The notes beneath the pieces are model-generated. The model worked only from the letters and a program-made list of their open reading frames with translations, was not told the DNA's origin and did not search any database. A program made the translations under genes and the position numbers. Shown piece by piece: positions 2 through 34,068 of a stretch of 64,000 nucleotides of DNA. Source of the DNA: a virus. The first letter of the stretch is position 1, and every line of letters begins with the position of its first letter. Where the stretch lies: IMG/VR virus record IMGVR_UViG_3300007072_000008, positions 1-64,000 of that record; one strand, 5' to 3'.

Positions 2-667
2 GATGCATTTTGGTCTTATCAATTTGCAAAGGCTTTAGGTTTTAAAAATGTTCCTGATTTTATTGTTCAAAGGATTGCTACAAATGCAGAATGGTCTTAT
101 GAATTTGCTAGAAATGTAGGTTTTAAAGGTATTCCTATTTCTATTGTTCAAGTGATTGCTACAGATGCAAGATGGTCTTATTATTTTGCTAGAGATTTAG
201 GGTTCAAAAATGTTCCTGATTCTATTGTTCAAAGGATTGCTACAAGTGCAGAATGTTCTTATGAATTTGCCAAAAGTTTAAAGTTCCAAGATGTTCCTGA
301 TTCTATTATAAGAGGGATTGCTACAAGTGCAGAACGGTCTTATGAATTTGCCAGAGGCTTAGGGTTCAAAAATGTTCCTGATTTTATAGTTCGAGGGATT
401 GCTACAAATGCATATTGGTCTTATCAATTTGCAAAAGGTTTAGGTTTGAAAGATGTTCCTGATTTTATTGTTCAAAGGATTGCTACAGATGCATGGTGTT
501 CTTATCAATTTGCTGAAGGATTAGGTTTTAAAGATGTTCCTAATTCTATTGTGCAAAGGATTGCTACAGATGCATGGTGGTCTTATCAATTTGCTGAAAA
601 ATTAGGTTTTACAAATGTTCCTAAAATAATTATGGATAAGGTTAAAAACAAACATGCAATGGTATAA
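2..667 (+). CDS. Tandem 26-aa repeat protein (5' partial; begins before the window)
   Basis: Frame is open from position 2. About 8 copies of VPDxIxxxIATxAxWSYxFAxxLGFKx (78-bp units). Confidence 0.85.
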   Translation, partial: DAFWSYQFAKALGFKNVPDFIVQRIATNAEWSYEFARNVGFKGIPISIVQVIATDARWSYYFARDLGFKNVPDSIVQRIATSAECSYEFAKSLKFQDVPDSIIRGIATSAERSYEFARGLGFKNVPDFIVRGIATNAYWSYQFAKGLGLKDVPDFIVQRIATDAWCSYQFAEGLGFKDVPNSIVQRIATDAWWSYQFAEKLGFTNVPKIIMDKVKNKHAMV

Positions 668-1658
668 GGTATTAAAACAATCACAACAAAGAGATTCGCA
701 GTTGTTTTTAAAGCTATTAAAAACTACAGTTAATAAATTGCTTCAAGAGGGCAAATTGATGCCTGAAGTTCAGATAGAAAAACTTTTAGAAAAGGGTGTA
801 CCTGGTACAGCAGCGATTTTAAAACCAATGATAAACAGACTTTTAGAAAATAAGGGAGTAACAAATAATTCTAAAAATATTGTAAAAATTGTTGCTACCA
901 GTGCATATTGGTCTTATTTATTTGCTAGAGGTTTGGGGTTTAAAGATGTACCTAATATAATTATAGAGAGGATTGCTACAAATGCAGGGTGGTCTTATGA
1001 ATTTGCTAAAATGTTACATTGTCAAGATGTTCCTATAATTATTACAGAAGGGGTTGCTAAAGATGCACAATTATCTTGTATGTTGGCCCAGCTATGTACT
1101 AACTATTTGGGTGTTAAAAATGTTCCTAATGCTATTATTGAAGGCATTGCTAAAGATGTATTTTGGTCTTATAAATTTGCTGAAAGTTTAGGTTTTAAAA
1201 ATGTTCCTACTTCTATTATTCAAAAGATAGCTACAGATGCACAATTGTCTTATAAATTTGCTAAAGGTTTACGATTTAAAACCAGGAATATTTTTATTAT
1301 TGGAGCGATTGCTACAAATGTGGGGTTATCTTACTGTTTTGCTGATGGTTTGGGGTTTAAAAATGTTCCTGCTATAATTATTGAAACGATTGCGACAAAT
1401 GTATATTGGTCTTATAGATATGCTGAAGGGTTAAATTTCCAAAAAGTTCCTGAAATAATTGTGTTAACGATTGCTAGAAGAGCAGAGTTATCTTATCGTT
1501 TTGCCAAAGGTTTAGATTTCCAAGATGTTCCTGATTCTATTATAAGAGGGGTTGCTACAGATGCACAATGGTCTTATGAATTTGCAAAGGCTTTAGGGTT
1601 TAAAAATGTTCCTAAGATAATTATGGATAAGGTTAAAGACAAACATGCAAAGGTATAA
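654..1658 (+). CDS. Tandem 26-aa repeat protein paralog with MQWYK N-terminal tag
   Basis: Same repeat as the upstream gene and near-identical C-terminus (VPKIIMDKVK.KHA.V). Starts MQWYKVLKQSQ. Confidence 0.88.
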   Translation: MQWYKVLKQSQQRDSQLFLKLLKTTVNKLLQEGKLMPEVQIEKLLEKGVPGTAAILKPMINRLLENKGVTNNSKNIVKIVATSAYWSYLFARGLGFKDVPNIIIERIATNAGWSYEFAKMLHCQDVPIIITEGVAKDAQLSCMLAQLCTNYLGVKNVPNAIIEGIAKDVFWSYKFAESLGFKNVPTSIIQKIATDAQLSYKFAKGLRFKTRNIFIIGAIATNVGLSYCFADGLGFKNVPAIIIETIATNVYWSYRYAEGLNFQKVPEIIVLTIARRAELSYRFAKGLDFQDVPDSIIRGVATDAQWSYEFAKALGFKNVPKIIMDKVKDKHAKV

Positions 1659-1830
1659 GGTATTAAACAGTAATAAGTCTATTAAGAACAACAGTTGATA
1701 ACTTATTTGAAGGGGGCAAATTGATTTCTGAAAGCTATAGGTTTAGGGTTTAAAGATACCAATGCATATTTGACTTATGAATTTGCTATATGGTTATGGT
1801 TTAAAAGATATTTCTATTATAAACAACAGT
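1645..1830 (+). pseudogene. Decayed third copy of the repeat-protein gene
   Basis: atgcaaaggtataaggtattaaa mirrors atgcaatggtataaggtattaaa at 654. Followed by frameshifted fragments (gggcaaattgat, ttagggtttaaagat, tatgaatttgcta). Confidence 0.7.
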
Positions 1831-1899
1831 TGATCACAGTGGGCTTCGTTAGAATTGCGTAATGTTATTCTATATAATAAATTATAGTCAGTTTAAGGT

Positions 1900-2376
1900 T
1901 TATACTCCTGTAGATCCAAAGCCACCTCCTCTGTCTTTTTTTTTAGTTTCCTCGTCAAATTCAACAACTTCCACGATTAGAGCCTGCTGGACCGGTGTAA
2001 GCACAGCTTGTGCTATTCGGTCGCCAATATTAATATAAAAGGCTTTATCTTTGGATAAATTGAACAGTATTATTTTTACCTCATCCAGGTAATCGGCATC
2101 AATAGTGCCTGGCGAATTAGTTATTGTGATGTTATATTTAGCTGCTAATCCGCTTCGGGGTCTAATTTGCATTTCATAATTAGGAGGTATATTAAAAGCT
2201 AATCCCGTCCTTACCACAGCTTGTTCTAGAGGTTTAATTAGCACTTTTTCTGCCGATGCGAGGTCGAACCCTGAGGATTGGACTGTGTGATATTTTGGCA
2301 CAGTTGCTTCAGGAAGGAGTTTTTTAACATTTAGTACTAAATTGTTAGTATATTTTTCTAAAGATTCTTTTGTCAT
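1900..2376 (-). CDS. dut: dUTPase (trimeric)
   Basis: Motifs SGFDL, RPRSGLA, GTIDADY, GDRIAQ, RGGGFGSTG. ATG at 2376 follows a GAGG SD (ORF track start is 2406). Confidence 0.96.
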   Translation of the reverse strand: MTKESLEKYTNNLVLNVKKLLPEATVPKYHTVQSSGFDLASAEKVLIKPLEQAVVRTGLAFNIPPNYEMQIRPRSGLAAKYNITITNSPGTIDADYLDEVKIILFNLSKDKAFYINIGDRIAQAVLTPVQQALIVEVVEFDEETKKKDRGGGFGSTGV

Positions 2377-2383
2377 AGTTACC

Positions 2384-4801
2384 TCAATTGCATTTTGAAT
2401 TTCCACATTCTATGCAAGATGAGCAGCCATCTTGTCTGACTATTTTTCCACCGCATTTGTCACATTTTTCACCGGTCCCGATTCCATCCTTGATATATTT
2501 TTTTAATGCTCTAGCCATAGCTTTACTAAAGCTAGTAAGATGTCCGTTGGTTTTCTCTAATTGCGAGACAATAAACGATACATCTGCCCCATGCCTTAAT
2601 GCTGTAGATGTTAGTCTTGTTAGTGCTTCTTCATCTTCGTTGATGTATTTAGTTATATCGGATAAAGAAGATCCATCGTTAAATTCGGCCTCGTATTTAC
2701 CTTTAGATTTTTTTATTATTTTTCCGTTTACTACTGTTTTATCTATCATTCCATTTTGTCCAGCAAATACTTCATACGGGTCATTATTGAACAATCCCAC
2801 TAGGACAAAATATTGTACTCCTTTTACCTTGACATGATGCACATCGCACGGTAATTCAGATGGTCGTTTTGGTGCTTGTGTTTTGGTAATTTTTTCCTTT
2901 GCTTTTTCTTCTGTATTGACCAGTACCCCTGTTCTACACCCATCTCTATAAACTGTAATTCCTTTACATCCCAATTGCCAAGCTTTTAGATAAATATCTG
3001 ATACGACTTCTTCAGTTACATCGTTTGGAAGATTAACTGTAGATGAAATAGAATTATCTATCCATTTTTGCAATGCTGCTTGCATTTTTACTCTATTAAT
3101 CCAATCGATATCATTTGCTGTGGCTTTATAGTAAGGTGATTTTTCTATATCATCAGTTCCATTTATTTTCATCCATCGTTGCAAACCATGATGATAAACA
3201 TCGAAGTGCATCCACTGATCACCGTTTTGGTCTATAAAATCAGTTCTAAATCCTTTATCACTTGGATTTCCTTTTTTACGTCGCATATATTTGAGCATAA
3301 ACACCGGTTCTAATCCAGAAGTTGTTTGTGTTAAGCAAGAAACTGATCCAGTAGGTGCAATGGTTAACAGCACCATATTACGCCTACCATATTTCTTCAT
3401 ATCTTCCCATAGTTCAGGATCTGCCTGTGCTATTCTTTGTATGAATCCTGATTTAATATCTATGTTAGAATCATATTGTGGGAATGGGCCAAGTTCTTTT
3501 GCCATTTCTACTGATGATCGATAGACTGACAGAGCATATTGCTTTTGCATTTCTTCACAGAACTCAATAGATTTTTGACTACCATATTTTATATTTAGAG
3601 CAGCCAAAGCATCTCCCAATGCTGTAAACCCACAGCCTGTGCGTCTATCCAAAAGTGCTGTTTTTCTAATATTATCCCAAAGATCTAACCCTATTTTTTT
3701 TATATATTCAGGTTCAGGATCGGACTTAATTTTAGCAATAATTCTATCTACGCATTCTATTTCCAGATCAACAAGATCATCTCCTAATCTTTGGATAATT
3801 CTTGCATGTTCTCTGAATAATTTATAATTAAAATATGCTTTATCAGTATATGGGTTTTCCACATAAGATAATAAATTTAAAACAAGTAATCGGCAACTAG
3901 CATATGGTGGCAAGAACTGCTCTCCACACGGGTTGCTAGATGTTTCAATATGCCCATAATGATAGCCAGTACTTTCACGATGGACAGTATCAATAAATAT
4001 ACAACCAGGCTCTGCCATTAACCACGCTGAATGAACAAATTGTGACCATATCTCTTTAGCTTTAACCAGTTTAGTTAAACGCGGTTGGTCAGAATCTACA
4101 GGCCACTGCAATTGGAATTGACTGTCTTTTAGTACTGCTTCCATGAATTGGTCGGTAAATTTAATACTAATATTTGATCCGGTAACTTGAGTAAGATCTT
4201 GTTTTACAGTTATAAAATCTAAGACTTGAGGATGTGCTACATGTAGTGATTGTAAGCTTGCCCCTCTACGACCGAACTGTGCAACTTCTCTAATAGTATT
4301 AGAATATCTTTTGACAAATTCTATCATACCACTGGTGGTTTTGGCGGCATTGCTAACAGCCATATTAGCTGGTCTAAGATTGCTTACATCCCAGCCCACT
4401 CCCCCACGCCTACAAGATATTTGTGCTATTTGAGAATCTGTGTAATTTATTCCTAAATAGGAATCGTAAGGAGAGGGTAAAACGAAACAATTTCCACTAG
4501 ATACATACTGATATGGATTACCTATTGCATACATCGGAGAACCTTGAAATACAATATACTTAAAACCCTCTTGTAATTTGTATATTTGTTCTTCGGTTAG
4601 TGGGTTTTTAAATTTTGCTTTCTCTATTCTTGCGAATTCCTTAGCAAGTCTAGAATGTAGATCTTTGGGAGTTTTTTCTAAGATATTATCTTCATTATCT
4701 CTTAGTGCGTATTTATCCACAAAAACTTTAGCGGCCAGTTCATCACCATTAAAATATTCTAAAGAAGCATTATAAGCATCATTATAGCTGTATTTTTTCA
4801 T
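2384..4801 (-). CDS. nrdJ: Class II (adenosylcobalamin-dependent) ribonucleotide reductase
   Basis: NCFV, RRGA, SNPCGEQ, TIAPTGS, SISSTVN, KGITVYRDG motifs; C-terminal Zn ribbon; no beta-subunit gene adjacent. Confidence 0.93.
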   Translation of the reverse strand: MKKYSYNDAYNASLEYFNGDELAAKVFVDKYALRDNEDNILEKTPKDLHSRLAKEFARIEKAKFKNPLTEEQIYKLQEGFKYIVFQGSPMYAIGNPYQYVSSGNCFVLPSPYDSYLGINYTDSQIAQISCRRGGVGWDVSNLRPANMAVSNAAKTTSGMIEFVKRYSNTIREVAQFGRRGASLQSLHVAHPQVLDFITVKQDLTQVTGSNISIKFTDQFMEAVLKDSQFQLQWPVDSDQPRLTKLVKAKEIWSQFVHSAWLMAEPGCIFIDTVHRESTGYHYGHIETSSNPCGEQFLPPYASCRLLVLNLLSYVENPYTDKAYFNYKLFREHARIIQRLGDDLVDLEIECVDRIIAKIKSDPEPEYIKKIGLDLWDNIRKTALLDRRTGCGFTALGDALAALNIKYGSQKSIEFCEEMQKQYALSVYRSSVEMAKELGPFPQYDSNIDIKSGFIQRIAQADPELWEDMKKYGRRNMVLLTIAPTGSVSCLTQTTSGLEPVFMLKYMRRKKGNPSDKGFRTDFIDQNGDQWMHFDVYHHGLQRWMKINGTDDIEKSPYYKATANDIDWINRVKMQAALQKWIDNSISSTVNLPNDVTEEVVSDIYLKAWQLGCKGITVYRDGCRTGVLVNTEEKAKEKITKTQAPKRPSELPCDVHHVKVKGVQYFVLVGLFNNDPYEVFAGQNGMIDKTVVNGKIIKKSKGKYEAEFNDGSSLSDITKYINEDEEALTRLTSTALRHGADVSFIVSQLEKTNGHLTSFSKAMARALKKYIKDGIGTGEKCDKCGGKIVRQDGCSSCIECGNSKCN

Positions 4802-4850
4802 TTATTATTCCTTTTCACAACTAACAATTTCGGAAATATCTGTCTATAGA

Positions 4851-5010
4851 AAAAACAAATCACATTGCAATCATAGTCCAGGTCTCTTTAGATTTTGACC
4901 GCAGATACATCCGTTATCACTAGTATTAACATTTGTATCCATTCTACAAAAGGTCGTTTTGTCGCGTTTTCCAAATCCAAACCTCAATGCTATGATGCAA
5001 TGTGATTGTT
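4851..5010 (-). ncRNA. Rod-shaped structured RNA, 6S-RNA-like (tentative)
   Basis: Five nested helices with G-U pairs that favour the minus strand, TATACT upstream and a U-tract downstream. Confidence 0.5.
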
Positions 5011-5220
5011 AATATTTTTATAGTATATAAATATATCTAAAAACCATATTTTGTTGTTACAATATCGTCTTTTTAGAACAGTTTAAAAAACAAAAATTTA
5101 TGTGAATGTAATTTTAATTGATTCGCTATACAACTGATAAAAAAGTTTGAAAGTAATACTGATAAACAAGAGAAACTTTTTTGCTTTTTAGATTTTTTAT
5201 TTTAAACCATTAAATTATAT

Positions 5221-5412: not shown

Positions 5413-5430
5413 GCACTTTATTGCTAAGTG

Positions 5431-7960: not shown

Positions 7961-7968
7961 ATTTTCTC

Positions 7969-10067: not shown

Positions 10068-10631
10068 ATGAACTGGTATAAAAGACATAACACTCCATTG
10101 GGGGTTATTCGAGAGGTATTGAAAGATCAGACCGACCTGCAAGCTCAAGATACACACTTTTCTTGTGGAGGAGCAACCATACAGAATCTTTTTAGACTGT
10201 TGCATCGTAAGTTACCTTCAGAAAAAGTTCTAAATCACAAGCTAAATACCCAACCAACCTCTGGCACTGCACCTAAAGCATTAGAAACATTTTTACAACG
10301 CAACAAAGTGCCATATACATACTATACGGATCAAGACGATGTAGAGGACATACTAAAACACGGAAATATTATTATCATAGAATATCAGGACTATAATAAT
10401 AATAAAAACCTCGAAGACCGACTTGCGTACACATCAAGTCATTTTGCAATTCTTGCTGGATATGACAACCGTTTCTTTTATATAATAGATAGTTATTTAC
10501 CCAAAAAAATGCCTACTAAAAGTGTAATTAAAAAAGTATTAAAAAACAAATTTTTACAAAATTGGAAAGCCCGATCTTATGATAAGCACACTTTAATGAA
10601 ACGTTGGGGTCTTATAATATCAGTCCGTTAA
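10068..10631 (+). CDS. C39-like (papain-fold) cysteine peptidase with MNWYK tag
   Basis: Q-x5-C (QDTHFSCG), GT.P motif, HFAILAGYD and IIDS give a Cys-His-Asp arrangement. Confidence 0.8.
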   Translation: MNWYKRHNTPLGVIREVLKDQTDLQAQDTHFSCGGATIQNLFRLLHRKLPSEKVLNHKLNTQPTSGTAPKALETFLQRNKVPYTYYTDQDDVEDILKHGNIIIIEYQDYNNNKNLEDRLAYTSSHFAILAGYDNRFFYIIDSYLPKKMPTKSVIKKVLKNKFLQNWKARSYDKHTLMKRWGLIISVR

Positions 10632-14063: not shown

Positions 14064-14153
14064 CGGAAGCGATAGGATTCGAACCTATGGTGCATCTTTA
14101 TGACACACGGGAGTTTAGCAAACTCCTGCATTAAGCCGCTCTGCCACGCTTCC
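14064..14153 (-). tRNA. tRNA-Ser(GCT)
   Basis: Cloverleaf with long variable arm, anticodon stem ggagt/actcc, GGTTCGAATCC. Confidence 0.93.
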
Positions 14154-14202
14154 CAATGTTGATGTAATCACTGAATTAATCAGCGACTGCAACCCTCGGG
14201 AA

Positions 14203-14278
14203 TGCTCCCGACCGGAATCGAACCGGCGATCTCTTCCTTGAAAGGGAAGCGATGTGAGCCAACCACATCTGCAGGAGC
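14203..14278 (-). tRNA. tRNA-Glu(TTC), atypical D-arm
   Basis: cttcc-CTTTCAA-ggaag, GGTTCGATTCC. Confidence 0.88.
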
Positions 14279-14333
14279 TAGATGCACTAGACTTTTAAAT
14301 CTAAGGTCTCCAGGTTCGTTTCTTCTCCCTAAA

Positions 14334-14410
14334 TACGACGGACAGAATTCGAACCTACAGTGAGTGTTTTTCACTCGGTCACTTTGGAGGCAAATTATAC
14401 TATCGCGTAG
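14334..14410 (-). pseudogene. Degenerate tRNA-like remnant
   Basis: T-loop GGTTCGAATT retained; no valid D or anticodon arms. Confidence 0.4.
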
Positions 14411-14414
14411 AATA

Positions 14415-14488
14415 CTGCCCTGCTAGGATTCGAACCTAGAACCTTGGGATCCAAAGTCCCCTGCGCTAACCGATTGCGCCACAGGGCA
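14415..14488 (-). tRNA. tRNA-Gln(TTG)
   Basis: ggga-CTTTGGA-tccc anticodon arm; canonical T arm. Confidence 0.93.
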
Positions 14489-14494
14489 ATTAGA

Positions 14495-14576
14495 AGAAGT
14501 CAGAGTGCATGATCCTCAGACTGTCTATTAATTAGATCCAATTCGTTTCGAACGAACTGCGGGTTTTCTGCCGCCA
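14495..14576 (-). pseudogene. Degenerate tRNA-Ser(CGA)-like element
   Basis: ttcg-TTCGAAA-cgaa anticodon arm, long variable region, non-canonical T loop. Confidence 0.4.
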
Positions 14577-14603
14577 ATTCGTATAACCGTTGCACAGCAT
14601 AAA

Positions 14604-14674
14604 CTACCCCACAAGGAATCGAACCCCGACTAAAACGTTCAGAGCGTTTCGTGCGACCATTACACTATGAGGCA
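14604..14674 (-). tRNA. tRNA-Gln(CTG)
   Basis: aaacg-CTCTGAA-cgttt, GGTTCGATTCC. Confidence 0.9.
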
Positions 14675-14683
14675 AAAGGATTA

Positions 14684-15350
14684 TTAGTATAATCCATTAA
14701 TATGTAGAACTTTATGACTTACAACAACAGAAGGATTTGCATTACCATTCCAATTTGGGATAAAAAATTCTCTACTAGTAGCTGGTTCTGTAAGTCGTTG
14801 CCAACCTGCTCTGTTTAAAATTTCTTGATATATACGGGAACGAGCATTGTTATGTTTTTTATCCTTATTCCTAAATATATGAGATCTGGTAGCATAATAA
14901 CTAATTTTTATAGGCAACCCATTAATGGACTGAAAAAATTCATACAATTTTGCAACAAGTTGCTCATTCTTTTTGTTAGCTAAATATTTTTTTCCCACAC
15001 GACTATAATCACTTACACCTTCTTTATTAGACCATTCTTGCTCTTCACAATTGCTTTCCCAGCCAAATGAAACATCGCATAACGCAAATGCATTAGAATC
15101 ATCATATAAAGACAATTCAGTATATAATGCTAAATCAATAATACGACATGCATAAGTTGCATATACCCTTCTACGAATGGTATAATCCTCATCGTAATTT
15201 ACTACCTTAGCATTGTTGAATATCTGTTCAAAACTCTTTATGGCTAAATTAATTGCTTGTACAGCATCAACACCTAACTGTCTTGTTGGTAACTGTTTTA
15301 ATCTTGGAGGTAAAAAAGATATTTTTTTTCCATATTTTAGTTTTATACAT
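14684..15350 (-). CDS. Hypothetical protein, probably frameshifted near its start (A8 run)
   Basis: Frame is open from 15358 with no in-frame ATG upstream of the track's TTG start at 15115. Removing one A at 15322-15329 joins the ATG at 15350 (MYKTKIWKKISFLPPRL...). Confidence 0.6.
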
Positions 15351-15358
15351 ATTGTTAA

Positions 15359-15703
15359 CTATTCCTTTATAATTTGCGCATATACTTTATTTGGGGCCTG
15401 CTTAAAATACTTATTCAGAGCAGGACATAACCATGCTAGGTGACCTGTATTATCTTTGTACCAATACCCTGTCATATCAGATACTTTATTATCCACCAAT
15501 GTTAAAGCAATGGTTGAACCATCAAATGGATTATTGGAAAAAAGTAGCTTTACTTTTTCATGCCCTCCGGCATACTTATCTAAAAGATCATCTGTGCCAG
15601 AAACAAGACCTTCCATTTTAAGGTCTCTTAACTCGTCATCAAAATACCAGAATCGTTCACCTTGACTATTAACAACTTTGTAGGGGTAAATCGTGTAAAT
15701 CAT
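15359..15703 (-). CDS. DUF6717-like conserved phage protein
   Basis: IYPYK...WYFDD...LLFS..PF...GYWY...WLCPAL.KYF..AP. Confidence 0.75.
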   Translation of the reverse strand: MIYTIYPYKVVNSQGERFWYFDDELRDLKMEGLVSGTDDLLDKYAGGHEKVKLLFSNNPFDGSTIALTLVDNKVSDMTGYWYKDNTGHLAWLCPALNKYFKQAPNKVYAQIIKE

Positions 15704-15780
15704 ATATGGAATGTGGTTTACTTTTACCGCGAAAATAGCCTTTTTAAACAATATACTTACGGTTCACCACAGTAAGGGAA

Positions 15781-15853
15781 TGGGCGATAAGGGATTTGAA
15801 CCCCTGACCTCTCGGATGTAGACCGAATGCTCTAGCCGCTGAGCTAATCGCCC
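15781..15853 (-). tRNA. tRNA-Val(TAC), C at position 33
   Basis: tcgg-TCTACAT-ccga; canonical D and T arms. Confidence 0.9.
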
Positions 15854-15856
15854 GGA

Positions 15857-15930
15857 TGGAGACGGTGAGAATCGAACTCACAACAGATTGGTTGCAAACC
15901 ATTCTCGCTACCCTTAGCACATGCGTCCCC
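15857..15930 (-). tRNA. tRNA-Ala(TGC), atypical D-arm
   Basis: TTTGCAA loop and G3:U70 identity pair. Confidence 0.88.
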
Positions 15931-15963
15931 GAAAATACTATTAACTTTTGATAGAGCAGTCTA

Positions 15964-16037
15964 TAGCGGCTCTGGGACTCGAACCCAGCTTGAAAGCTTA
16001 TGAGGCTTTCCAGACCACCATGGCCTTGCCAGCCGCA
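15964..16037 (-). tRNA. tRNA-Met(CAT), initiator-like 1:72 mismatch
   Basis: aaagc-CTCATAA-gcttt; U1:U72. Confidence 0.85.
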
Positions 16038-16134
16038 ATCAAATAACAGACAAGTTTTGTTGAGTTAACCATCCAATACTGGTCTGTTATATTCTCCACA
16101 TACTAACACCCTAAAAACCCTTCTTGTTCACGAT

Positions 16135-16329
16135 TTATTTTTTACTGTTTAAGCTTTTAGATTCTAACAACTCTTTGGCTAGCTCTTCAAGCTCATCTTC
16201 CCATTCATTCATAGCTTTATTATAATCTGAATCTACTTCTTCTGATAATTGTTTTATAGGTCTAAATCTCCATAAAATTTGCATAGCATTTAACTTGCTA
16301 ATTATTTCATCAACCATTTTATCATCCAT
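16135..16329 (-). CDS. Hypothetical protein
   Basis: GAGG SD, 64 aa. Confidence 0.6.
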   Translation of the reverse strand: MDDKMVDEIISKLNAMQILWRFRPIKQLSEEVDSDYNKAMNEWEDELEELAKELLESKSLNSKK

Positions 16330-16357
16330 TGATACCTCTGTTCTTTTTTTACCGCAA

Positions 16358-16612
16358 TCACTCTTCTTTAAAAATATTCTCAGTTTGTTCTGGTGTATAT
16401 TTTCGCCTGTTAATAATCTCTTTTATTTTTCTGGCAATAAAAATATGAGTATATGTATGAATCTTAGAATCCTTTTCAATTGTTTCTAAATATTCTCTTA
16501 ACTCCGCTTTTTCCTCTTTAGTTAATTTCTTCTCATTTTCTTTTAAGGAAGATAATGTGGTGGATAAAGCATTATATATCTCTGCCTTTAATGCTTTCCA
16601 AGTTCTACCCAT
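16358..16612 (-). CDS. Hypothetical protein
   Basis: 84-aa charged helical ORF. Confidence 0.6.
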   Translation of the reverse strand: MGRTWKALKAEIYNALSTTLSSLKENEKKLTKEEKAELREYLETIEKDSKIHTYTHIFIARKIKEIINRRKYTPEQTENIFKEE

Positions 16613-16640
16613 ATTATTTACCAGTCGGGTTAGAGTTAGT

Positions 16641-16970
16641 TTACCACCATAGATTCAGAAAATGCTCAGAAAATAATTTCAAACCACTTTTGACTTCTTC
16701 ATATTCTTTGTTACTTAAATCCCATGCTCCTCTGCTAACTAATTCAAATGTGCGAATCATCTTATCAAGTTTGGCATTCCAGCTTTTTTCAGTTTCTCCA
16801 TAAGGAAATCCTTTACACAATTCTTTAAATCTAACCAGTCTTGGATATACAAATTTGGCAATTGTATAATCTAAACTCCAAGTATCTTGGTCAGTCCAGC
16901 CACGCTCTTTCATTTGCCTTTTAAATAAGGCTTTTCTATTTTCTGATTGTTTTTTACAACTTTTTTTCAT
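16641..16970 (-). CDS. Conserved phage hypothetical protein (WSLDYTIA...PRL..F family)
   Basis: RGW.D.DTWSLD...LDKMI..FE...GL.LF..HF.NLW pattern common in large phages; ATG at 16970 chosen. Confidence 0.75.
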   Translation of the reverse strand: MKKSCKKQSENRKALFKRQMKERGWTDQDTWSLDYTIAKFVYPRLVRFKELCKGFPYGETEKSWNAKLDKMIRTFELVSRGAWDLSNKEYEEVKSGLKLFSEHFLNLWW

Positions 16971-17198
16971 TAATACCAAAGTCCTATCATCGCTGTTATA
17001 AGCAGACTTGATAATACTACTACCTTTATAACACCAACAGTTACACATGAATAAAAAATCCAATTGGGAATATAAATACACTTACATCCGTAACTATCTT
17101 TGCAAGCAACACAATTTCTTGATTCCATGTTTTCTCCTTTTGTAAGAATCACGTTCCATCTACTTCATTTAGCTATACAAACCCTTATTAAGAATATA

Positions 17199-17390
17199 TT
17201 AAGTTTTTTGCAGACTTTTGGTTTTTTTTATAGCTCTGAAATATGAATTTATAGCTGCTTCTGCCGCTTTAAACTGGCATCTATAGTCTTTTTCAGAAGT
17301 ATAAATAGGATCAGTTTTTTTATCAGGTACTACATAAGCCCTGAATCTTACACCAAAAGGTTTAACTAATTTTTCTAATTTAATATTCAT
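17199..17390 (-). CDS. Hypothetical protein
   Basis: GGAG SD before the ATG at 17390. Confidence 0.55.
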   Translation of the reverse strand: MNIKLEKLVKPFGVRFRAYVVPDKKTDPIYTSEKDYRCQFKAAEAAINSYFRAIKKTKSLQKT

Positions 17391-17489
17391 AATTTTCTCC
17401 AAATATAATATAAAATGTCCACAGTAGAAATCGAACCGACAATACTTCTGTGATATGCAATTCGCCATGCGGACGTTATTTAAATACAC

Positions 17490-17900
17490 CTATAGGGTTG
17501 AACACATATGCTTTTTATTTCCCAATGTTGCATGGAAAGTTTTTCTCAAGCCTACGGGCGGCTGAATATAAAGGCTTTCATTAGGTAATCCTAACTCTTC
17601 CCTTATTTCTTCTAGCCGCTTTGACCATATATCTATCCAATAATAAACTTCACTATTCCTTATTTCATTACTGTATATAAAATCTACTATTTCCCCCTCA
17701 TACTTTCCCCAAAACTCCATTTTAGGCTCTACAATTTCTTTTCTTACTACAGAAATGTGAGCGTCATACATTTGTCTCTGCAAATAATTTGATATTGATT
17801 TTGGCAGTAGTTTTCTGTAATAATTAACAAGATCCTGTTCTATGTCCAGAACAACATTAGTCTTGCCATATCGAAGTTTTCTTTGTGACTGATAAATCAT
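17490..17900 (-). CDS. 2H phosphoesterase superfamily protein
   Basis: Two H-x-[S/T] motifs (AHISV, FHATL) about 75 aa apart with LEEIREELGL between them. Confidence 0.75.
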   Translation of the reverse strand: MIYQSQRKLRYGKTNVVLDIEQDLVNYYRKLLPKSISNYLQRQMYDAHISVVRKEIVEPKMEFWGKYEGEIVDFIYSNEIRNSEVYYWIDIWSKRLEEIREELGLPNESLYIQPPVGLRKTFHATLGNKKHMCSTL

Positions 17901-17903
17901 AAC

Positions 17904-17963
17904 ATCGAACCCACTTGTTTCTGTTTAGAAAACAGACGCCTAATCCAGTCTAGCCACAGGAGC
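17904..17963 (-). pseudogene. 3'-truncated tRNA-Arg(TCT)
   Basis: Intact 5' acceptor strand, D arm, tctgt-TTTCTAA-acaga and GGTTCGAT, then runs directly into the 2H gene start. Confidence 0.7.
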
Positions 17964-18110
17964 AATGTCTTTCTTTTTTACCGCAACAAACTTGTAAAGC
18001 CCAATAACGGAATCGATCTTACCACGATTGCGTGATACCCTTTTACCAATCTGTCTAAACAAGATGCAGACGGAAAACACGCAGATCAGGTATGCAATTA
18101 CGCACTAACG

Positions 18111-18186
18111 GGTGTGCGACGGGATTCGAACCCGCGAATAACATGAACCACAATCATGCGCGTTAACCAACTTCGCCACGCACACC
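18111..18186 (-). tRNA. tRNA-His(GTG)
   Basis: catga-TTGTGGT-tcatg; G-1 present. Confidence 0.93.
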
Positions 18187-18455
18187 AATTATACTTCTTC
18201 ATTATAACTTTACCTGCAAAGGTTGTTACTACACAATATAATAATCAATCGATCTAACTTTTTAGATTTTTTCTCCCGGTTTTGTATACAACTAATATTG
18301 GCCAAGAATATTACAATATCGCCATATTTTAGGGGATGCTATGCTGATTTTTTTTACGGTAAACAACAGCCCTTTCTTGCGTTCTGATGCCCATTGAGGT
18401 TCAAAGACAATTACCTGTCCACCCTGAAACTGTTTCTGTTTTCTGATCAAACATA

Positions 18456-18527
18456 TCGGGGTGACAGGGATCGAACCTGCGACTTCAAGTTCCCAAAACT
18501 TGCGGACTACCTCTGTCCTACACCCCG
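18456..18527 (-). tRNA. tRNA-Pro(TGG)
   Basis: cggggtg acceptor stem; caagt-TTTGGGA-acttg. Confidence 0.93.
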
Positions 18528-18581
18528 AACATTGCAAACAATAACAAACACTTTCACCAGATTAGCATCCCATAATTCAAG

Positions 18582-18653
18582 CTCGCAGAGCAGGATTCGA
18601 ACCTGCGACCATTCGGTTAACAGCCGAACGCACTACCGCTGTGCTATCTGCGA
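18582..18653 (-). tRNA. tRNA-Asn(GTT)
   Basis: ttcgg-CTGTTAA-ccgaa. Confidence 0.93.
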
Positions 18654-18654
18654 A

Positions 18655-18727
18655 AGCCAGAGGGGGGACTCGAACCCCCGGTTACGGGTTTACAAAACCC
18701 GCGCTGTAGCCGCTGAGCCACTCTGGC
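18655..18727 (-). tRNA. tRNA-Thr(TGT)
   Basis: cgggt-TTTGTAA-acccg; gcc/ggct acceptor. Confidence 0.92.
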
Positions 18728-18835
18728 ATTTCACATTCTAGTGCCTCTTTCATGCTATAATATTTCTTTGATTGAGCAATTATCTTTTCCGACAAGGTAA
18801 ATTGCAACAATTTTATTCATAGTAGTTTCCAAACA

Positions 18836-18908
18836 AGACCAGGGTGGGATTCGAACCCACGTATAGTGGATTTGCAATCCACTTCCTTAGCCACTCGGAC
18901 ACCTGATC
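18836..18908 (-). tRNA. tRNA-Cys(GCA)
   Basis: gtgga-TTGCAAA-tccac. Confidence 0.93.
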
Positions 18909-18914
18909 GTACAA

Positions 18915-18986
18915 TAGGCTTAAGTGGAGTCGAACCACTAATTGTTTCTTATCAGGAAACTGGTATAACCGTTTACCTATAAGCCT
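18915..18986 (-). tRNA. tRNA-Ile(GAT)
   Basis: gtttc-CTGATAA-gaaac. Confidence 0.9.
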
Positions 18987-18995
18987 ATGGTAACT

Positions 18996-20374: not shown

Positions 20375-21001
20375 ATGAATTGGTATAAGTATTCAATGCC
20401 GCAGATAAAAGATGTAAAATCTTCTGTAGATCAAATTTGTATGAAAATAAAACAAATTCAAGGAGTAAAAGATGTTTTTTTATTTGGTTCTTATGCAGCA
20501 AATATTAATAACCCATCCGCAATAGTAAAGGATGTTGATATCATTGCAGTTACGGAATTTAACACTGGTGATTTATTAGCAATTGATAACACAGCTTATT
20601 CGGCTTTGAAAATCAGTCCAAAAAATCTGGAAGAAGAGGGTTTTTGTAAAGAGGCTGTCAGTTTTACAAAGCAGTTTTTGTCATATGGGAACTATAATAT
20701 AGACCACTGGGCATTATCTGCTAGTAAGCAATTGTTACATTGGGGTGATATGCCAGAGACAAAAGAAGAATGGCAAGAAATACACATTAAAGCAGAGCAA
20801 GAAGCTAATGTCTTAACTGGAATTTCAAAAAATGATCTAAAAACAGCAACTAATGCACAAAAAAAGGAATGGAAAGAAATATTCGACAAATATATTAATA
20901 GATATGTGCAAAATAAAAATAGTGGCTGGTGTTTATCAGAAAACAAATTTAATTCTATAAAAAAAGATATTATTAAATGGACGATTTGGCAGAACAACTA
21001 G
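20375..21001 (+). CDS. Pol-beta family minimal nucleotidyltransferase with MNWYK tag
   Basis: VFLFGSYA...KDVDII (GS and DxD motifs), third Asp in NIDHW. Confidence 0.8.
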   Translation: MNWYKYSMPQIKDVKSSVDQICMKIKQIQGVKDVFLFGSYAANINNPSAIVKDVDIIAVTEFNTGDLLAIDNTAYSALKISPKNLEEEGFCKEAVSFTKQFLSYGNYNIDHWALSASKQLLHWGDMPETKEEWQEIHIKAEQEANVLTGISKNDLKTATNAQKKEWKEIFDKYINRYVQNKNSGWCLSENKFNSIKKDIIKWTIWQNN

Positions 21002-29956: not shown

Positions 29957-30087
29957 CATTCGGAGAGTTCAAAGACCAGTTAGCCAGTTTTCCAGATGAT
30001 TGGGAAATCACTTTTGCTGGTGGGATGATTGTTTGTCGTCTCAAGCAACGAGATGTAAAGATGGTAAACGTAGAATTTGATGCTTAA
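29953..30087 (+). CDS. Small hypothetical protein MTFGEFKDQLASFPDDWEITF...
   Basis: ATGA overlap; typical small phage protein start. Below the ORF-track cutoff. Confidence 0.6.
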   Translation: MTFGEFKDQLASFPDDWEITFAGGMIVCRLKQRDVKMVNVEFDA

Positions 30088-30099
30088 ACATCATCCTAA

Positions 30100-30927
30100 C
30101 GGTGGTAGTTTGTGTCTGCCGATTGGGGAAGTAATTGGTGATAAAATAGAATGGGACGTAGTGCTATTCAAATACAGCGATAATGGCAATCAAATTAAAC
30201 AGGAGATCGAACGTAATCAGAAGCAAATCGAGTCAATGATAGAGATAGCCAACAAGCAGGTATCCCAGATACGGTCGAAGAGATATAAATTTCATCACAT
30301 AATGCCATAGTGAAAAAGGGGAAAAAGCAACGGGCTGAAATCATCATTCAGAACGTGCATAATCAATACGTGGAAATGCTAATCCAAATCAACAACAATG
30401 TAAGTGAAGACGTGAATAATGTAATTTAATCAGCATAACAACAATCTTGGTGGAGATGTTAATAATGCCGTTGCATAACGGGGCAATGTGACACAGACGC
30501 TTGTGACTGGAAACAGGGTTGCTGTCGATCAACCCAAGGATAACTTCCTGACCATTTTGTGGAAGAAGGCAAAACAGCTTTTCAAGTGGCTGTTTGGGAT
30601 GAAATGACCCCAGAAGAAAAGAAACAAACTCTCATTGCAAGCGGTTGGGAACCAGTCATGGAAGGCAATCATCAACTTTGGCTCGACCCAGAAGACGAGA
30701 CAAGGGACGATCCAACTACATTCGTTGGATTGAATAATTTGGCTGCGATAACTTCCGACCAACATAACTCAATATTGGTCAATGGTCGCATCCTCAAGAG
30801 CATCAATCAGTGGTATAATAAACATCCGAGCAAAACCAACTCTCGCAAGCGACATTTTCGCTTGGAGAACTACTTTCACCACGTTTTCAAGATGATTGTC
30901 AAAAACTGTATCAGGCACGGACGGTGA
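30100..30927 (+). pseudogene. Decayed ORF fragments within the cassette
   Basis: Reading frames are broken by a frameshift near 30300 and an in-frame TAA near 30541. Confidence 0.45.
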
Positions 30928-31116
30928 AGGTCAGACGATTGATGGCTCAAACTCTAAAAAGTAAGGAAATCTTGTCAATCATAGATTTCCGTAGGTTTTA
31001 AGGAACGGTATAAATAGATTGGAGCAATAAACACGGATATAGAAACTTCGGGTAATTAGGATGATTCTGCTACTCTAATCTCTCCTGCTTTTACTGAGGA
31101 ATTTGATACCACAGAG

Positions 31117-31515
31117 TCACATACTATAATTTACCCACAAAATAATATCGCATTCAAAAAAGCATTTTTTCCTCTGTATTCCAATAACAGGCAAATAATT
31201 CTTATTTCCCTCTTGTTGTTTACGAGCTATGAAAGCTTCGGGTTCTTCTCCGGTTAGCAAAAAGTTATTCATTACTTCAGCCGCGATTGGTTGTATGTCT
31301 GACCCTAGTTCGACACTTTTATTAATTGTGATAGTCCAATCTATAGTCGGCAGATCTGATATGTATATATCTTTGACTTCAAAATCTTTTATAACAGGTC
31401 CATCTCCCAGTACAGATGAAGTAATTATTTCTTTCATAGAAGGATATTGATGTATGCATTTCTTTACTAAAGATAAAAAGTCAGCTAAAGGAATGCGGCA
31501 TAGATCAGCATCCAC
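31117..31515 (-). CDS. Hypothetical protein
   Basis: 132 aa, abuts the upstream gene. Confidence 0.65.
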   Translation of the reverse strand: MDADLCRIPLADFLSLVKKCIHQYPSMKEIITSSVLGDGPVIKDFEVKDIYISDLPTIDWTITINKSVELGSDIQPIAAEVMNNFLLTGEEPEAFIARKQQEGNKNYLPVIGIQRKKCFFECDIILWVNYSM

Positions 31516-31764
31516 CTACTCGTCTCCTAGTAATTGAACTATATTTTTGCCAAAGTGATTATTTGGAAAATCGAAACTAAATGTGGTATTTGCTTTTTTT
31601 GCAGAAGCATTGGCCATTACACCTCGATTAATTTTAAAATCGTAATCCAATAGGTGTGGAATGTTGTTATTGTTATTTGCCCATATGTCAATAGCAAAAT
31701 TAGCCAAAGCTTCAGCATGTTTTTCATTCAATAGGTTCAGTAGCTGTTTTGTTTTTTCGTTCAT
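31516..31764 (-). CDS. Hypothetical protein
   Basis: GAGG SD. Confidence 0.65.
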   Translation of the reverse strand: MNEKTKQLLNLLNEKHAEALANFAIDIWANNNNNIPHLLDYDFKINRGVMANASAKKANTTFSFDFPNNHFGKNIVQLLGDE

Positions 31765-31771
31765 AAATTCC

Positions 31772-32683
31772 TCAGTTAATATAATGATCGATACCTAAAT
31801 CTTGTTTTTTGTAATTTTCTATATCATACAAGCATCGATCCCCATATGTTTGAGCGACATGGGAGATTAATGTTTCACTATGAGTGACTATAAAAAATTG
31901 TTTATCAGGAAATGTGGTTATCATTTGATCTAATGCTCGGGTTTGTCTTTTATAGTAGATTTCTTTTTCAAAAGAATCTATGACAACCACACTGGCTTGA
32001 TTTATATAATTACTATCACACAAATGGGCTATCATTGTAGCTAATTTTTTTTCTCCACCACTAAATGATTTGTAGTGGACCTTAACACCATATTTGTTGA
32101 TCACAAAATCATTATAAAAATCCAAGGTATGTAAATACTCTGCGTCATCCCAAATAGACCTTACTAATTCTTCATTATGTTTAACAAAATTACAGTCAAA
32201 ATTATATATTATTTTGGCTAAAGATAAAAACTTTTCGCCGTCCTGTACCGCTACTTGAAATTTCGAAGTATTAATTGGATTGTCAGCATCAATATAGTAA
32301 GCATATCCGGCACGGTCTAAACAGGTTTGCACCACACCAAAATTATTGTATTCTACTGTGCCTATTTCACCACTAGAACGGTTCACTAAGTGGGCCAGTA
32401 TATTCATGTTGTAAACCGAAGACAAACCTTCTTTTTCTTTGATAAATTGATATGTATCATAGTCTTCGTTAAATACTAGTTTTTTTAACAACAAGGAATT
32501 GTCTCGATCTATTAGCCGCGGAGAATTATATACTAAATTAATAGCTTGCAATAAGGAGGTTTTTCCAGAACCATTAGGTGCAAATATTAAATACACAGGT
32601 TTAAAGGTATCGTCTATGAATGTAAACGTAATATCCCTATAACCCATAAAATTTTGCAAACGAATATCCTTCAAGTACCACAT
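31772..32683 (-). CDS. ABC/SMC-type (AAA_21-like) ATPase
   Basis: LQNFMGY, APNGSGKTS, FSGGEKK, VVVIDSFE, IVTHS; start MWYLK at 32683. Confidence 0.85.
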   Translation of the reverse strand: MWYLKDIRLQNFMGYRDITFTFIDDTFKPVYLIFAPNGSGKTSLLQAINLVYNSPRLIDRDNSLLLKKLVFNEDYDTYQFIKEKEGLSSVYNMNILAHLVNRSSGEIGTVEYNNFGVVQTCLDRAGYAYYIDADNPINTSKFQVAVQDGEKFLSLAKIIYNFDCNFVKHNEELVRSIWDDAEYLHTLDFYNDFVINKYGVKVHYKSFSGGEKKLATMIAHLCDSNYINQASVVVIDSFEKEIYYKRQTRALDQMITTFPDKQFFIVTHSETLISHVAQTYGDRCLYDIENYKKQDLGIDHYIN

Positions 32684-32844
32684 GTTACTATATCGGCCTG
32701 TTGGTGTAGCTATTGAATTAATTAACGACCGTAACATTACATATAGCTAATTTTATTAATTATATTTTAAGTCTACATGTTGAAAGTGTTGAAGTGGTTT
32801 TTGTTCTAAGTATGTTTTAAATGATAATTATTTAACTGATCTTA

Positions 32845-34068
32845 TTATTCTATAAGCCAACGTATAATTAAATCGTTAGATGTAAACTGTGTTGTGTTTG
32901 CGTATTGTTTTATTATATCCCATAATTCGGCATTATCTAATAATGACTGTTCCGGTGCTTCTAAAGAAAACCATTCAGCCTCATTATAATTCTGTAAAAA
33001 ATAGGCTCTATACTTTGGATCTTCGGTGAATTTTTTTATAGTATTTTTAACAGGTCCAAAGTGAGCATATTCATAGGTAATATTAGATAGTCGTTTAATT
33101 GATTTTATCTGATCTTTGGTAGAACATTTAAGTTTTTCTCTGTTTATAGGTAACTTGTCATTTATATATTTATTTTTTACTTCTTCTTTTGCTTCGCAAT
33201 ATAGTTTATCTTGTAAGCCATTATGAATCACTATATATAACATTTGTTCTTTCGCAGGTAGTGCTTTAAATTGCTCATCAGGCAAAACCTGTAACCTTTT
33301 TATGATTTGTTCATCTTCTGGTGAGATGGGTACATATTTTAATTGATTCATAGCATTTTTTAGTTCTGGAATAATTTTAAACACCTCTTTCCAATTAGAT
33401 TCCACACTGTCTTGATCGGTATTGTTTTTGCTGGTTAAGATGGGCTTATTATTAACGGTAATTTGTAGCGCAAATATTTTATAATCATCTGTATTTGGGG
33501 CTTGTTTTCTCAGTCCAAAATAAAAAGTAGATCGCAGTTTGTTGAATCTATATGTATAAAAAAGGTTTTTAGATGCCTCCGTTCTAGATACGCACCATGT
33601 TGTAGGTACGACTTTATTAATTTCACGATCTAATTTATTCCGAATGGCTACACATGCTTGAGGATTGTCTCCTCTGTACAAATCAATTTGATTGTCACTA
33701 TAAACAGGCTCTGGCCCATCTTGTGCTGGTGCTGAATAATTAGTTTTATCTTTTTCTGCTTTGTTTATGGTTTCTATAGCAGTGAGCACTTCGTTTTTTA
33801 ATTCATCAAACGACTGAATTTGTTGAATGTTTTTAACTATTCCTGTTATTTGACGATATCGTTCACGATATTGTTCAAATAAATCTATATATCTATTAAT
33901 TTCTTGAGCAAATTGGTGTAAATCGGGTATAGATTCAATAGATTTTTTGCTTTTACATTGTTTATACTGTTCTTCATTTATAATGCCTTGATTCCGCATT
34001 ATCTTTAAAATAATATCTAATTTACGTCCTCTACCAATAGCAAATTTTAATATTTTATACCACTGCAT
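32845..34068 (-). CDS. Hypothetical protein with MQWYK tag and WCV...YR...TFYF domain
   Basis: Starts MQWYKILKFA; paralog of 21422..23578. Confidence 0.8.
   Translation of the reverse strand: MQWYKILKFAIGRGRKLDIILKIMRNQGIINEEQYKQCKSKKSIESIPDLHQFAQEINRYIDLFEQYRERYRQITGIVKNIQQIQSFDELKNEVLTAIETINKAEKDKTNYSAPAQDGPEPVYSDNQIDLYRGDNPQACVAIRNKLDREINKVVPTTWCVSRTEASKNLFYTYRFNKLRSTFYFGLRKQAPNTDDYKIFALQITVNNKPILTSKNNTDQDSVESNWKEVFKIIPELKNAMNQLKYVPISPEDEQIIKRLQVLPDEQFKALPAKEQMLYIVIHNGLQDKLYCEAKEEVKNKYINDKLPINREKLKCSTKDQIKSIKRLSNITYEYAHFGPVKNTIKKFTEDPKYRAYFLQNYNEAEWFSLEAPEQSLLDNAELWDIIKQYANTTQFTSNDLIIRWLIE

Follow-up and report, generated by a model that had tools for sequence, protein, structure and literature searches.

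In bacteriophage T4, head proteins, internal proteins and Alt carry N-terminal propeptides of 10–20 residues, the capsid targeting sequences (CTSs), which are removed by the prohead protease, as described in the accessible parts of two papers (PMC5694885, PMC3012670). According to these parts, the CTS cargo includes the ADP-ribosyltransferase Alt and diverse anti-restriction internal proteins (PMC3012670, PMC5694885), and the internal proteins of T-even phages are highly diverse and have the CTS alone in common (PMC3012670). The accessible text also describes, for phage SPN3US, an ejection protein in which a propeptide is followed by a transmembrane helix, and two diverged paralogues with an identical 15-residue N-terminus (PMC5694885). 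In this study, we analyzed the first 64,000 bases (hereafter, the window) of the 73,277-base viral contig IMGVR_UViG_3300007072_000008 in the IMG/VR database (CheckV completeness ∼17%), in which five dispersed genes encode proteins that begin with M[NQ]WY[KQ]. A preliminary description of this DNA had interpreted that start as a capsid-targeting signal for injected effectors. It is nearly certain that a modular peptide tag exists here; the tag is lineage-specific and is joined to dozens of unrelated proteins with almost no linker.

A six-frame scan of the window identified exactly five open reading frames (ORFs) that start with M[NQ]WY[KQ], as had been described, and all five are ATG-initiated, with the ATG lying 1–9 codons past an in-frame stop (Table 1). 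Given the phage's own amino-acid usage, the probability of an M[NQ]WY start is 6.1e-5 per gene, so that about 0.006 such starts would be expected among 96 ORFs. The motif [NQ]WY[KQ] occurred five times in the selected window ORFs, always at the N-terminus and nowhere else. By BLAST, the five bodies form four groups (gene 1, gene 2, gene 3, and genes 4 and 5 together), because genes 4 and 5 encode paralogous proteins (25% identity over 354 aa, E = 1e-20); the earlier statement that at least four unrelated families carry the tag therefore holds. K-x-[A/S] follows the tag in four of the five proteins, again as described, gene 2 being the exception.

The window encodes a ribonucleotide reductase, a dUTPase, a sigma factor, 13 tRNAs, a terminase, an intein-bearing portal protein, a protease polyprotein and a major capsid protein (MCP). 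Because its MCP, protease and portal match those of Bacillus phage G, and its MCP those of IMG/VR relatives, the window is a fragment of a phage-G-like megaphage. The MCP led to 112 IMG/VR relatives, of which 80 were kept (MCP identities of 69–83% among these), on contigs of up to 548 kb, several of which are complete with terminal repeats. The genomes of the tag-using sub-clade of phage-G-like megaphages measure about 460–550 kb.

To describe the breadth of the tag, we pooled G000, G001 and loci L007–L114 (1.64 Mb, 4150 ORFs of ≥ 60 aa) and clustered the ORFs on residue 16 to the end at E 1e-6, which gave 2516 body clusters. In this clade pool, 44 proteins from 36 body clusters had “NWY” at residues 2–4, whereas the runner-up tripeptide reached 15 clusters, and 54 proteins from 45 body clusters started with M[NQST]W[YF]. 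A logo built from one representative per cluster (n = 45) had M in 45, N in 38, W in 45 and Y in 41, with F in place of Y in 4. Here, W and Y/F had been selected for, and positions 5–8 were free of any selection criterion. Among these unselected positions, position 5 was K in 35 of the 45, position 6 was basic or Q in 32 (K 20, R 7, Q 5), position 7 was A in 21, and position 8 was Q, K or T in 29 (14, 9 and 6, respectively). The consensus is thus M-N-W-Y-K-[KRQ]-A-[QKT], with zero conservation past residue 8. NWYK occupied residues 2–5 in 33 ORFs and occurred elsewhere 23 times; 12 of these 23 are preceded by a Met and probably mark the real start of an ORF that also has an in-frame start codon further upstream.

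The distribution of the tag differed among genomes. In the relative G001 (63.9 kb), which has about 10 tagged ORFs, ATGNNNTGGTAY gave 11 matches against 1 for the control. Among complete genomes of the clade, the matches to ATGAAYTGGTAY and to the control were 12 vs 0, 14 vs 0 and 7 vs 2 in three tag-rich genomes and, in the other two, 1 vs 0 and 1 vs 1. The complete genome G006 had 12 tagged ORFs. In metagenome loci that were found through the nucleotidyltransferase, 15 of 419 ORFs started with M.W[YF], and MNWYKKAQ was recurrent. Tagged genes also form tandem arrays, with five consecutive MNWYKKAQ starts in locus L020 and four in G001. In two unrelated huge phages, ATGNNNTGGTAY stayed at background (9 vs 7 and 8 vs 7 for the control), and in phage G the tag pattern was likewise at background (6 vs 7).

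The families behind the five window tags differ in how regularly they carry the tag. For the repeat protein of gene 1, we found no PHROG match and no Pfam match above threshold; it has 27-aa repeats and a C-terminus in common with the untagged ORF 152–667. The 60 nt 5′ of gene 1 and of the decayed copy reported previously are nearly identical and are carried by the 3′ ends of ORF 152–667 and gene 1, so that this copy is a 17-codon remnant within a tandem duplication. The labels “C39-like peptidase” (gene 2) and “nucleotidyltransferase” (gene 3) rest on matches that lie below the Pfam cut-offs (PF13529, 20.5 bits against 24; NTP_transf_2, 17.6 bits against 21). Precomputed database annotation assigns PF13529 to the gene 2 protein and to both of its homologues (P0004 and P0005, 44% and 43% identical), which both start with MNWYKTA, and Cys33 and His125 are invariant in the alignment of only these three sequences. 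In the gene 3 family (14 sequences), G38, S39, D53 and D55 are invariant; G-[GS] followed by D-x-D is the signature of the nucleotidyltransferase fold. Nine of the 14, including the window's own, have W-Y at the start, and the other five are called from Met8. Met8-Pro9 is invariant in this family (alignment A1, L007–L033). The true start, and hence the carriage of W-Y by all members, is uncertain.

Gene 5 belongs to a large family, for which an exhaustive search gave 189 representatives. Its closest relative, the sole close one, is 34% identical and starts with MQWYKLLKFAL. Among the 150 relatives listed, only four start with M.WY, two of which are the window's own, and one more starts with VNWY; the tag is missing from 146 of the 150, which, together with the 45 body clusters, strongly supports and extends the modularity claimed in the preliminary description. 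Single-sequence searches of IMG/VR with the proteins of genes 4 and 5 detected no close relatives, and a search of the phages collection with gene 4 gave one distant match, whose phage (595 kb) makes no use of the tag. The family of genes 4 and 5 has a conserved core (C139, W158, C159, Y183 and P234), and some members end in DUF4116 repeats; no Pfam family was found for the core. In the AF2 model of the gene 5 protein (pLDDT 81), the tag opens an N-terminal helix. Foldseek detected no match of this model in the PDB at E up to 0.001, and a wide VIA-align search returned helical-hairpin rows only, with Z up to 6.2 over residues 1–108.

The tag resembles, in sequence, the N-termini of the protease polyprotein and the MCP. 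Across the clade, a strict pattern for the polyprotein start, M-[AS]-[FMLI]-x-K-[RKIT]-A-[TS], is matched at 37 of 71 loci, and in most other loci, including the window, the start is one residue shorter. In an alignment of 29 polyproteins, M1, K4, K37 and A39 are invariant and A6 is present in at least 90% of the rows; the window polyprotein has a second K-x-A-S at residues 37–40. The clade MCPs start with M-[AS]-φ-x-K-x-[GSNA]. K-x-A/S follows W-Y in most tags, and a relaxed form of it stands at the MCP start. In G006, the pattern ^M[ASNQTG][FWYLIM]xKx[ASG] matched 12 of 650 genes, where the internal frequency predicts 0.86, a specificity that is partly circular because the pattern was designed after the protease and MCP starts had been viewed; nine of the 12 matches carry the W-Y tag, and the other three are the protease polyprotein, the MCP and a 77-aa ORF. 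In 79 MCP loci (709 kb of upstream and 568 kb of downstream sequence), all 27 tagged ORFs lay downstream of the MCP gene, 21 of them on the MCP strand, and none lay upstream, although this placement partly reflects the space available for variable genes because conserved structural genes fill the upstream side. The tie between the tag and head assembly is circumstantial.

The polyprotein itself is a candidate for the enzyme that processes the tag and/or for a scaffold that acts as its receptor. Its residues 68–243 are 36% identical to gp19 of phage G. Against Pfam S78_2, it scored 17 bits (cut-off 24), and 7 of 29 relatives matched at E up to 1. In the Foldseek results for its model (pLDDT 57), the best row was T4 gp21 (E = 0.097, probability 0.89), and no sequence match was found in the PDB. 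These signals are weak but concordant, suggesting a protease of the S78, T4 gp21 or assemblin kind. In herpesviruses, assemblins cut between Ala and Ser, and K-x-A with S/T behind it is compatible with such cleavage, as a lead only. Residues ∼800–1000 and 1500–1610 of the polyprotein are acidic and of low complexity, with up to 55 D/E per 100, and the region near 1050 is Gly/Pro-rich. The polyprotein may double as a scaffold or internal protein, and it is a speculation that its acidic stretches could attract the basic tag. In 12 of 29 protease domains (alignment A4, L035–L082), a Hint/intein insertion is found at one site, directly past G-[TS]-S-M-G; the window copy is without it.

Phage G lacks the window tag but has a differently spelled, lineage-specific equivalent of it. 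K-R-L is the commonest tripeptide at residues 2–4 of its ORFs (14 of 1231; the next tripeptide, 6), and 13 annotated proteins start with M-K-R-L-x-K-K-[AS] (gp13, 17, 38, 53, 126, 284, 296, 334, 346, 347, 351, 508 and 675). Their annotations are ParB-like nuclease, NUDIX/deoxyribosyltransferase-like, ferritin-like DNA-binding, member of the “gp336 multigene family” and hypothetical. Two of the carriers are placed within the head module, gp13 directly 5′ of the portal gene and gp17 between the portal and protease genes. The body of gp53 opens with H-G-T-S, as do those of the ADP-ribosyltransferase-like tagged proteins of the clade.

The cargo of the clade is diverse. Behind the tag, we found ADP-ribosyltransferase-like (a weak PARP match), nucleotidyltransferase-like, peptidase-like, methyltransferase-like, DUF4116-containing and helix-turn-helix-like bodies, a T4-type lysozyme, and many small proteins with no assigned function, many of which are 60–140 aa long. 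A Gly/Ala-rich membrane helix occurs in three tagged proteins, one of which has a lysozyme domain; by eye, only L020 4051, G001 32517 and G006 7796 had a hydrophobic stretch behind the tag among the tagged proteins inspected. Past residue 8 nothing is conserved, and the tag does not have the makeup of a Sec/Tat or lipoprotein signal, in which a short charged N-region is followed at once by a hydrophobic core. In G006, 12 paralogues (at 11–17 kb on the minus strand, 289410 and 357517) start with MKIRxGFVSNSSSSSF; this set is a multigene family whose starts are conserved over 16 residues, and not a modular tag.

The upstream sequences were also analyzed. The preliminary description had assigned a late-type AAAGG motif to several tagged genes, a claim that our counts contradict: AAAGG was present within 60 nt 5′ of only two of the five, and within 30 nt 5′ of 3 of 27 packaging/head-block genes against 7 of 56 other genes. 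TTAAAGG occurred 24 times (19.3 expected). As there was no enrichment, AAAGG/TTAAAGG was rejected as a late promoter; close to a start codon, AAAGG looks like a Shine-Dalgarno site. In G006 (L146–L168), the motif TTGCCAGAGTG, with a TATAGT-like box ∼14 nt further on, precedes the members of an array of about 65 small plus-strand genes, and the motif CTTGAAAGTGATTT, followed by a TATAAT-like box, precedes about 40 others, the sigma-factor gene among them. These strong motifs lie at 378–428 kb and scattered elsewhere, in intergenic positions, and they are probably two promoter classes.

Based on these results, we consider capsid targeting with clipping to be the best reading of the tag, with a probability of roughly 45%. 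Since the tag resembles the starts of the shell protein and the protease, it is probably an address for loading into the head. The tag would mimic the N-terminal motif of the protease polyprotein (M-[AS]-φ-x-K-[RK]-A-[TS]) and of the MCP, and the partner that recruits these two proteins into the assembling prohead would recognize it. The prohead serine protease would then clip the tag after K-x-A/S, and the cargo would stay in the head and be delivered at the next infection, following the logic of the T4 CTS. We infer each of these steps, i.e., that the tagged proteins bind a head component and are cleaved, packaged and injected. Capsid targeting gains circumstantial support from the ADP-ribosyltransferase-like and lysozyme cargo because these are kinds of protein that T4 and giant phages package. 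The related starts of the protease polyprotein and the MCP, the placement of tagged genes downstream of the MCP gene and the two phage G carriers within the head module lend support of the same circumstantial kind.

Besides the partly circular pattern and the free space downstream of the MCP gene, several observations weigh against this interpretation. Starts of the M-A/S...K form are common among highly expressed bacterial proteins. The window's tagged genes lie on both strands among nucleotide-metabolism, tRNA and methylase genes, outside the head operon, as the preliminary description had correctly noted, and neither promoter-like motif is found within 120 nt of any of the 12 tagged genes of G006. 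W-Y was kept in 24 of 26 nucleotidyltransferase loci whatever its distance from the start codon, so that W-Y may there belong to the fold, that is, to the protein proper. The tagged proteins with a membrane helix could be signal-anchor endolysins, exported instead of packaged. Ten of the 11 Ala7 codons of the tag are GCA, whose genome-wide share is 36%, and this bias indicates some nucleotide constraint or recent copying. Finally, the particle proteome of phage G comprises 104 of 668 ORFs, including replication enzymes, and gp346 is the sole carrier that the accessible text states to be in it (PMC12484599). The text of Hua et al. 2017 mentions neither mass spectrometry nor gp26 or gp27.

The strongest rival, which we regard as unlikely, is that the tag is a docking peptide for a partner outside the capsid, such as a phage or host chaperone, DNA, an anchor in a membrane or compartment, or an enzyme that modifies N-termini, and that the likeness to the MCP and protease is coincidental or related to expression. 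The tag is strictly N-terminal, amphipathic, basic and aromatic, and it was helical in the single AF2 model available (gene 5, residues 2–26, pLDDT 55–76 there), all of which would suit docking. The same applies to the very mixed cargo, with a membrane helix right behind the tag in three proteins, and to the dispersal of tagged genes in non-structural regions. However, no candidate partner was found, and an 8-residue tag without a linker is too short to be a membrane anchor alone. Docking also leaves unexplained why the protease polyprotein and the MCP are, beside one 77-aa ORF, the only untagged matches to the G006 pattern, and why phage G has carriers within its head module.

An improbable explanation is that the tag acts as an N-terminal degron for an AAA+ protease (e.g., ClpXP of the host or phage), which would keep a set of potentially toxic take-over enzymes short-lived or clear them at a set time. 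The tag is strictly N-terminal with residues in a polar-hydrophobic-hydrophobic-basic order, an order that resembles published N-terminal ClpX recognition classes, and many cargo domains are those of enzymes potentially harmful to the cell. Moreover, ClpX and ClpP are encoded by phage G and one relative, according to the accessible text of one paper (PMC12484599). In contrast, ClpP (PF00574) was found in only one of the five complete genomes, a tag-poor one, and its absence from the three tag-rich genomes weakens the degron explanation; phage-encoded ClpP was rejected as the tag receptor for the same reason. A degron would also be odd on the MCP and the prohead protease, and it does not account for the clustering of tagged genes beside, and co-oriented with, the MCP gene.

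It is very improbable that the peptide is the by-product of a DNA or mRNA element, i.e., a translation-initiation context, an internal promoter or a recombination homology. We examined the codons of 27 tagged starts and 40 upstream columns. The tag Asn is encoded by AAT and AAC 11 times each, and Lys by AAA 11 times and AAG 8 times, so that third positions are free to change synonymously. Seven different codons are used at residue 2, for N, Q, S or T; these swaps are conservative for the peptide yet 1–3 bases apart (AAY, CAR, AGY and ACA). All 40 upstream columns are unconserved, the change from Y to F in 4 of 45 clusters points the same way, and the peptide is kept by homologues that have diverged to 34–55% identity. 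The preliminary description had named a similarity limited to nucleotides as the outcome that would tell against a peptide tag, and no such limitation was seen. In favor of a DNA element, T-G-G-T-A-T is invariant, TGGTATAA resembles an extended -10 element, and, beside the GCA bias at Ala7, AAC and AAG are above their genome-wide usage. However, the would-be -10 hexamer ends in A or G and not in T. Similarly, a good Shine-Dalgarno site is missing in four of the five tagged window genes, but such sites are present for the tagged genes of other loci. A transcription start inside the tag (extended -10 or leaderless), which the Met8 of the nucleotidyltransferase family had suggested, was rejected because no downstream Met was found elsewhere and the last -10 position did not fit. 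The tandem arrays in L020 and G001 would be expected if the 5′ end drives cassette shuffling, and the tag could serve recombination alongside its function as a peptide. Besides the GCA bias, the tag Tyr is TAT in 25 of 27 starts (84% genome-wide). We interpret the codon data as selection at the peptide level, plus some copying or codon constraint.

That there is no tag at all, and that the carriers are diverged paralogues with an ancestral N-terminus, is barely conceivable: genes 4 and 5 are indeed paralogous, gene 1 and ORF 152–667 arose by duplication and W-Y is family-wide in the nucleotidyltransferases, yet the 45 tagged clusters have no detectable similarity at E 1e-6 beyond residue 15, different Pfam/PHROG domains stand behind the tag, and the starts are different in 146 of the 150 listed relatives of gene 5.

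If the tagged class is packaged and injected, it points to first-strike proteins against host defenses. Nearly all megaphages are uncultured, with no function known for the majority of their genes, and a label readable from the sequence that marks one functional class of proteins would annotate dozens of unknown genes per genome. As a wider picture, which is tentative and rather doubtful, phage-G-like megaphages may have a programmable address-label system, in which an octapeptide that imitates the capsid-protein and prohead-protease N-termini loads a large, fast-evolving set of enzymes into a capsid of the ∼500-kb class for co-injection. The label cargo in this scheme would comprise ADP-ribosyltransferases, nucleotidyltransferases, peptidases, methylases, lysozymes and DNA-binding proteins, and the label would co-evolve with its receptor between lineages, as M-N-W-Y-K-K-A-Q here and as M-K-R-L-x-K-K-A in phage G. 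If this picture is correct, the tag would allow the injected effector set of uncultured megaphages to be read straight from the sequence, with possibly a dozen or more loaded proteins per genome in tag-rich members. Because the tag is short, portable and strictly terminal, it is also a possible cargo-loading handle for very large capsids. The hypothesis is directly testable because the cultured phage G, which has a Lysinibacillus as its host, carries its own tag on 13 annotated proteins.

The coordinates of the tagged genes and of the other features are summarized in Table 1. The intein of the portal protein (residues ∼1094–1413) contains a LAGLIDADG endonuclease (Pfam LAGLIDADG_3, E = 1e-19; Intein_splicing; DUF559), and at its N-terminus the window portal is longer by about 350 residues than the portals of G001 and G006 (744–766 aa). 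In G006, the gene at 64945–67302 encodes S-W-Y-K-K-N, a tag-like string slightly inside the start of a structural-module protein, at residues 7–12; it is a homologue of the window gene 44795–46036, which is sited between the terminase and portal genes. The 13 tRNA genes (Ser, Glu, two Gln, Val, Ala, Met, His, Pro, Asn, Thr, Cys and Ile) lie on the minus strand at 14064–18987, where small ORFs are interleaved with them and the G+C content is locally raised because of them. In the relatives, tagged genes fill the region 3′ of the MCP gene, where the contig of the window has homing-endonuclease and methylase-like genes.

Table 1. Positions of the tagged genes, the head genes and the other features (window coordinates unless stated otherwise).
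Feature	Position	Strand	Remark
Tagged gene 1, MQWYKVLKQS..., 334 aa, ~27-aa repeats	654..1658	+	Tag = codons 1-8 (654-677)
Tagged gene 2, MNWYKRHN..., 187 aa, C39-like peptidase candidate	10068..10631	+	Sub-threshold Pfam match
Tagged gene 3, MNWYKYSMP..., 208 aa, nucleotidyltransferase-like	20375..21001	+	GS...DxD invariant
Tagged gene 4, MNWYQLVKIA..., 718 aa	21422..23578	+	Paralogue of gene 5
Tagged gene 5, MQWYKILKFA..., 407 aa	32845..34068	-	Large, mostly untagged family
Untagged paralogue of the repeat protein, 171 aa	152..667	+	61% identical to the C-terminal half of 654-1658
Decayed tag copy MQRYKVL (W to R), open for 17 codons	1645..1698	+	Tandem-duplication remnant
Portal protein, 1450 aa with intein, start MPIKFS	50231..54583	+	31% identical to phage G gp14; weaker resemblance of the start to the motif
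Prohead-protease polyprotein, 1980 aa, start MITKKAT	56982..62924	+	phrog_18299 head maturation protease, E 3.7e-14
Major capsid protein gene, 286 aa, start MAYKNS	63608..64468 of the contig (window ends at 64000)	+	54.5% identical to phage G gp27
LAGLIDADG homing endonuclease, DNA-methylase-like gene, 502-aa homing-endonuclease/GNAT protein	64649-68261 of the contig (L034)		Directly after the MCP gene, past the window end
Phage G M-K-R-L starts (NC_023719)	11937, 16055, 28218, 35181, 73330, 207449, 214437, 244460, 255160, 256453(-), 258975, 388147, 482110		

Neither tag motif was found described in the literature searched by motif string, and the accessible main text of the 2025 multi-omics paper on phage G contains no mention of N-termini, propeptides or capsid targeting (PMC12484599). 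The concept of the CTS is known. As far as we searched, what is new here is the spelling of the tag, its breadth (at least 45 families), the megaphage lineage, the resemblance to the MCP and protease, and the parallel in phage G.

The closest known system, compared by description, is the T4 CTS (IPI–III, Alt and gp24), which is likewise a short N-terminal peptide on diverse proteins with an ADP-ribosyltransferase among its cargo, in a phage whose head shell protein is also clipped at the N-terminus. In contrast, the CTS has 10–20 residues and the present tag 7–8, and the tag has no acidic P1 residue, whereas the T4 prohead protease cleaves after Glu. The T4 lineage is unrelated to the phage-G-like lineage described here, whose protease is nearer to the S78/XkdF type. 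Encapsulin cargo-loading peptides and the HK97 prohead-protease tail are other cases in which a short terminal peptide docks cargo inside an HK97-fold shell or onto a scaffold domain; these peptides are usually C-terminal and retained, whereas the present tag is N-terminal. N-terminal ClpX recognition signals are also short, strictly N-terminal, transferable mixes of polar, hydrophobic and basic residues, but they are degenerate, in contrast to the invariant W-Y here, and the tag-rich genomes have no ClpP. In the giant phages phiKZ, SPN3US and 201phi2-1, as far as the accessible text describes them, many proteins of the head bear propeptides at the N-terminus that are cut by the prohead protease, but these propeptides are mostly longer than 100 residues, are common to paralogues only and are cut at A/S-x-E, in contrast to an octapeptide that spans unrelated families (PMC5694885). 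The tag of phage G agrees with the present one in its N-terminal position, its K-K-A end, its unrelated carriers and the phage clade, and differs in the spelling of residues 2–5 and in belonging to a cultured phage. With at least 45 families in the clade and 7–14 exact matches per tag-rich genome, the tag described here is joined to far more carrier families than the CTS of T4.

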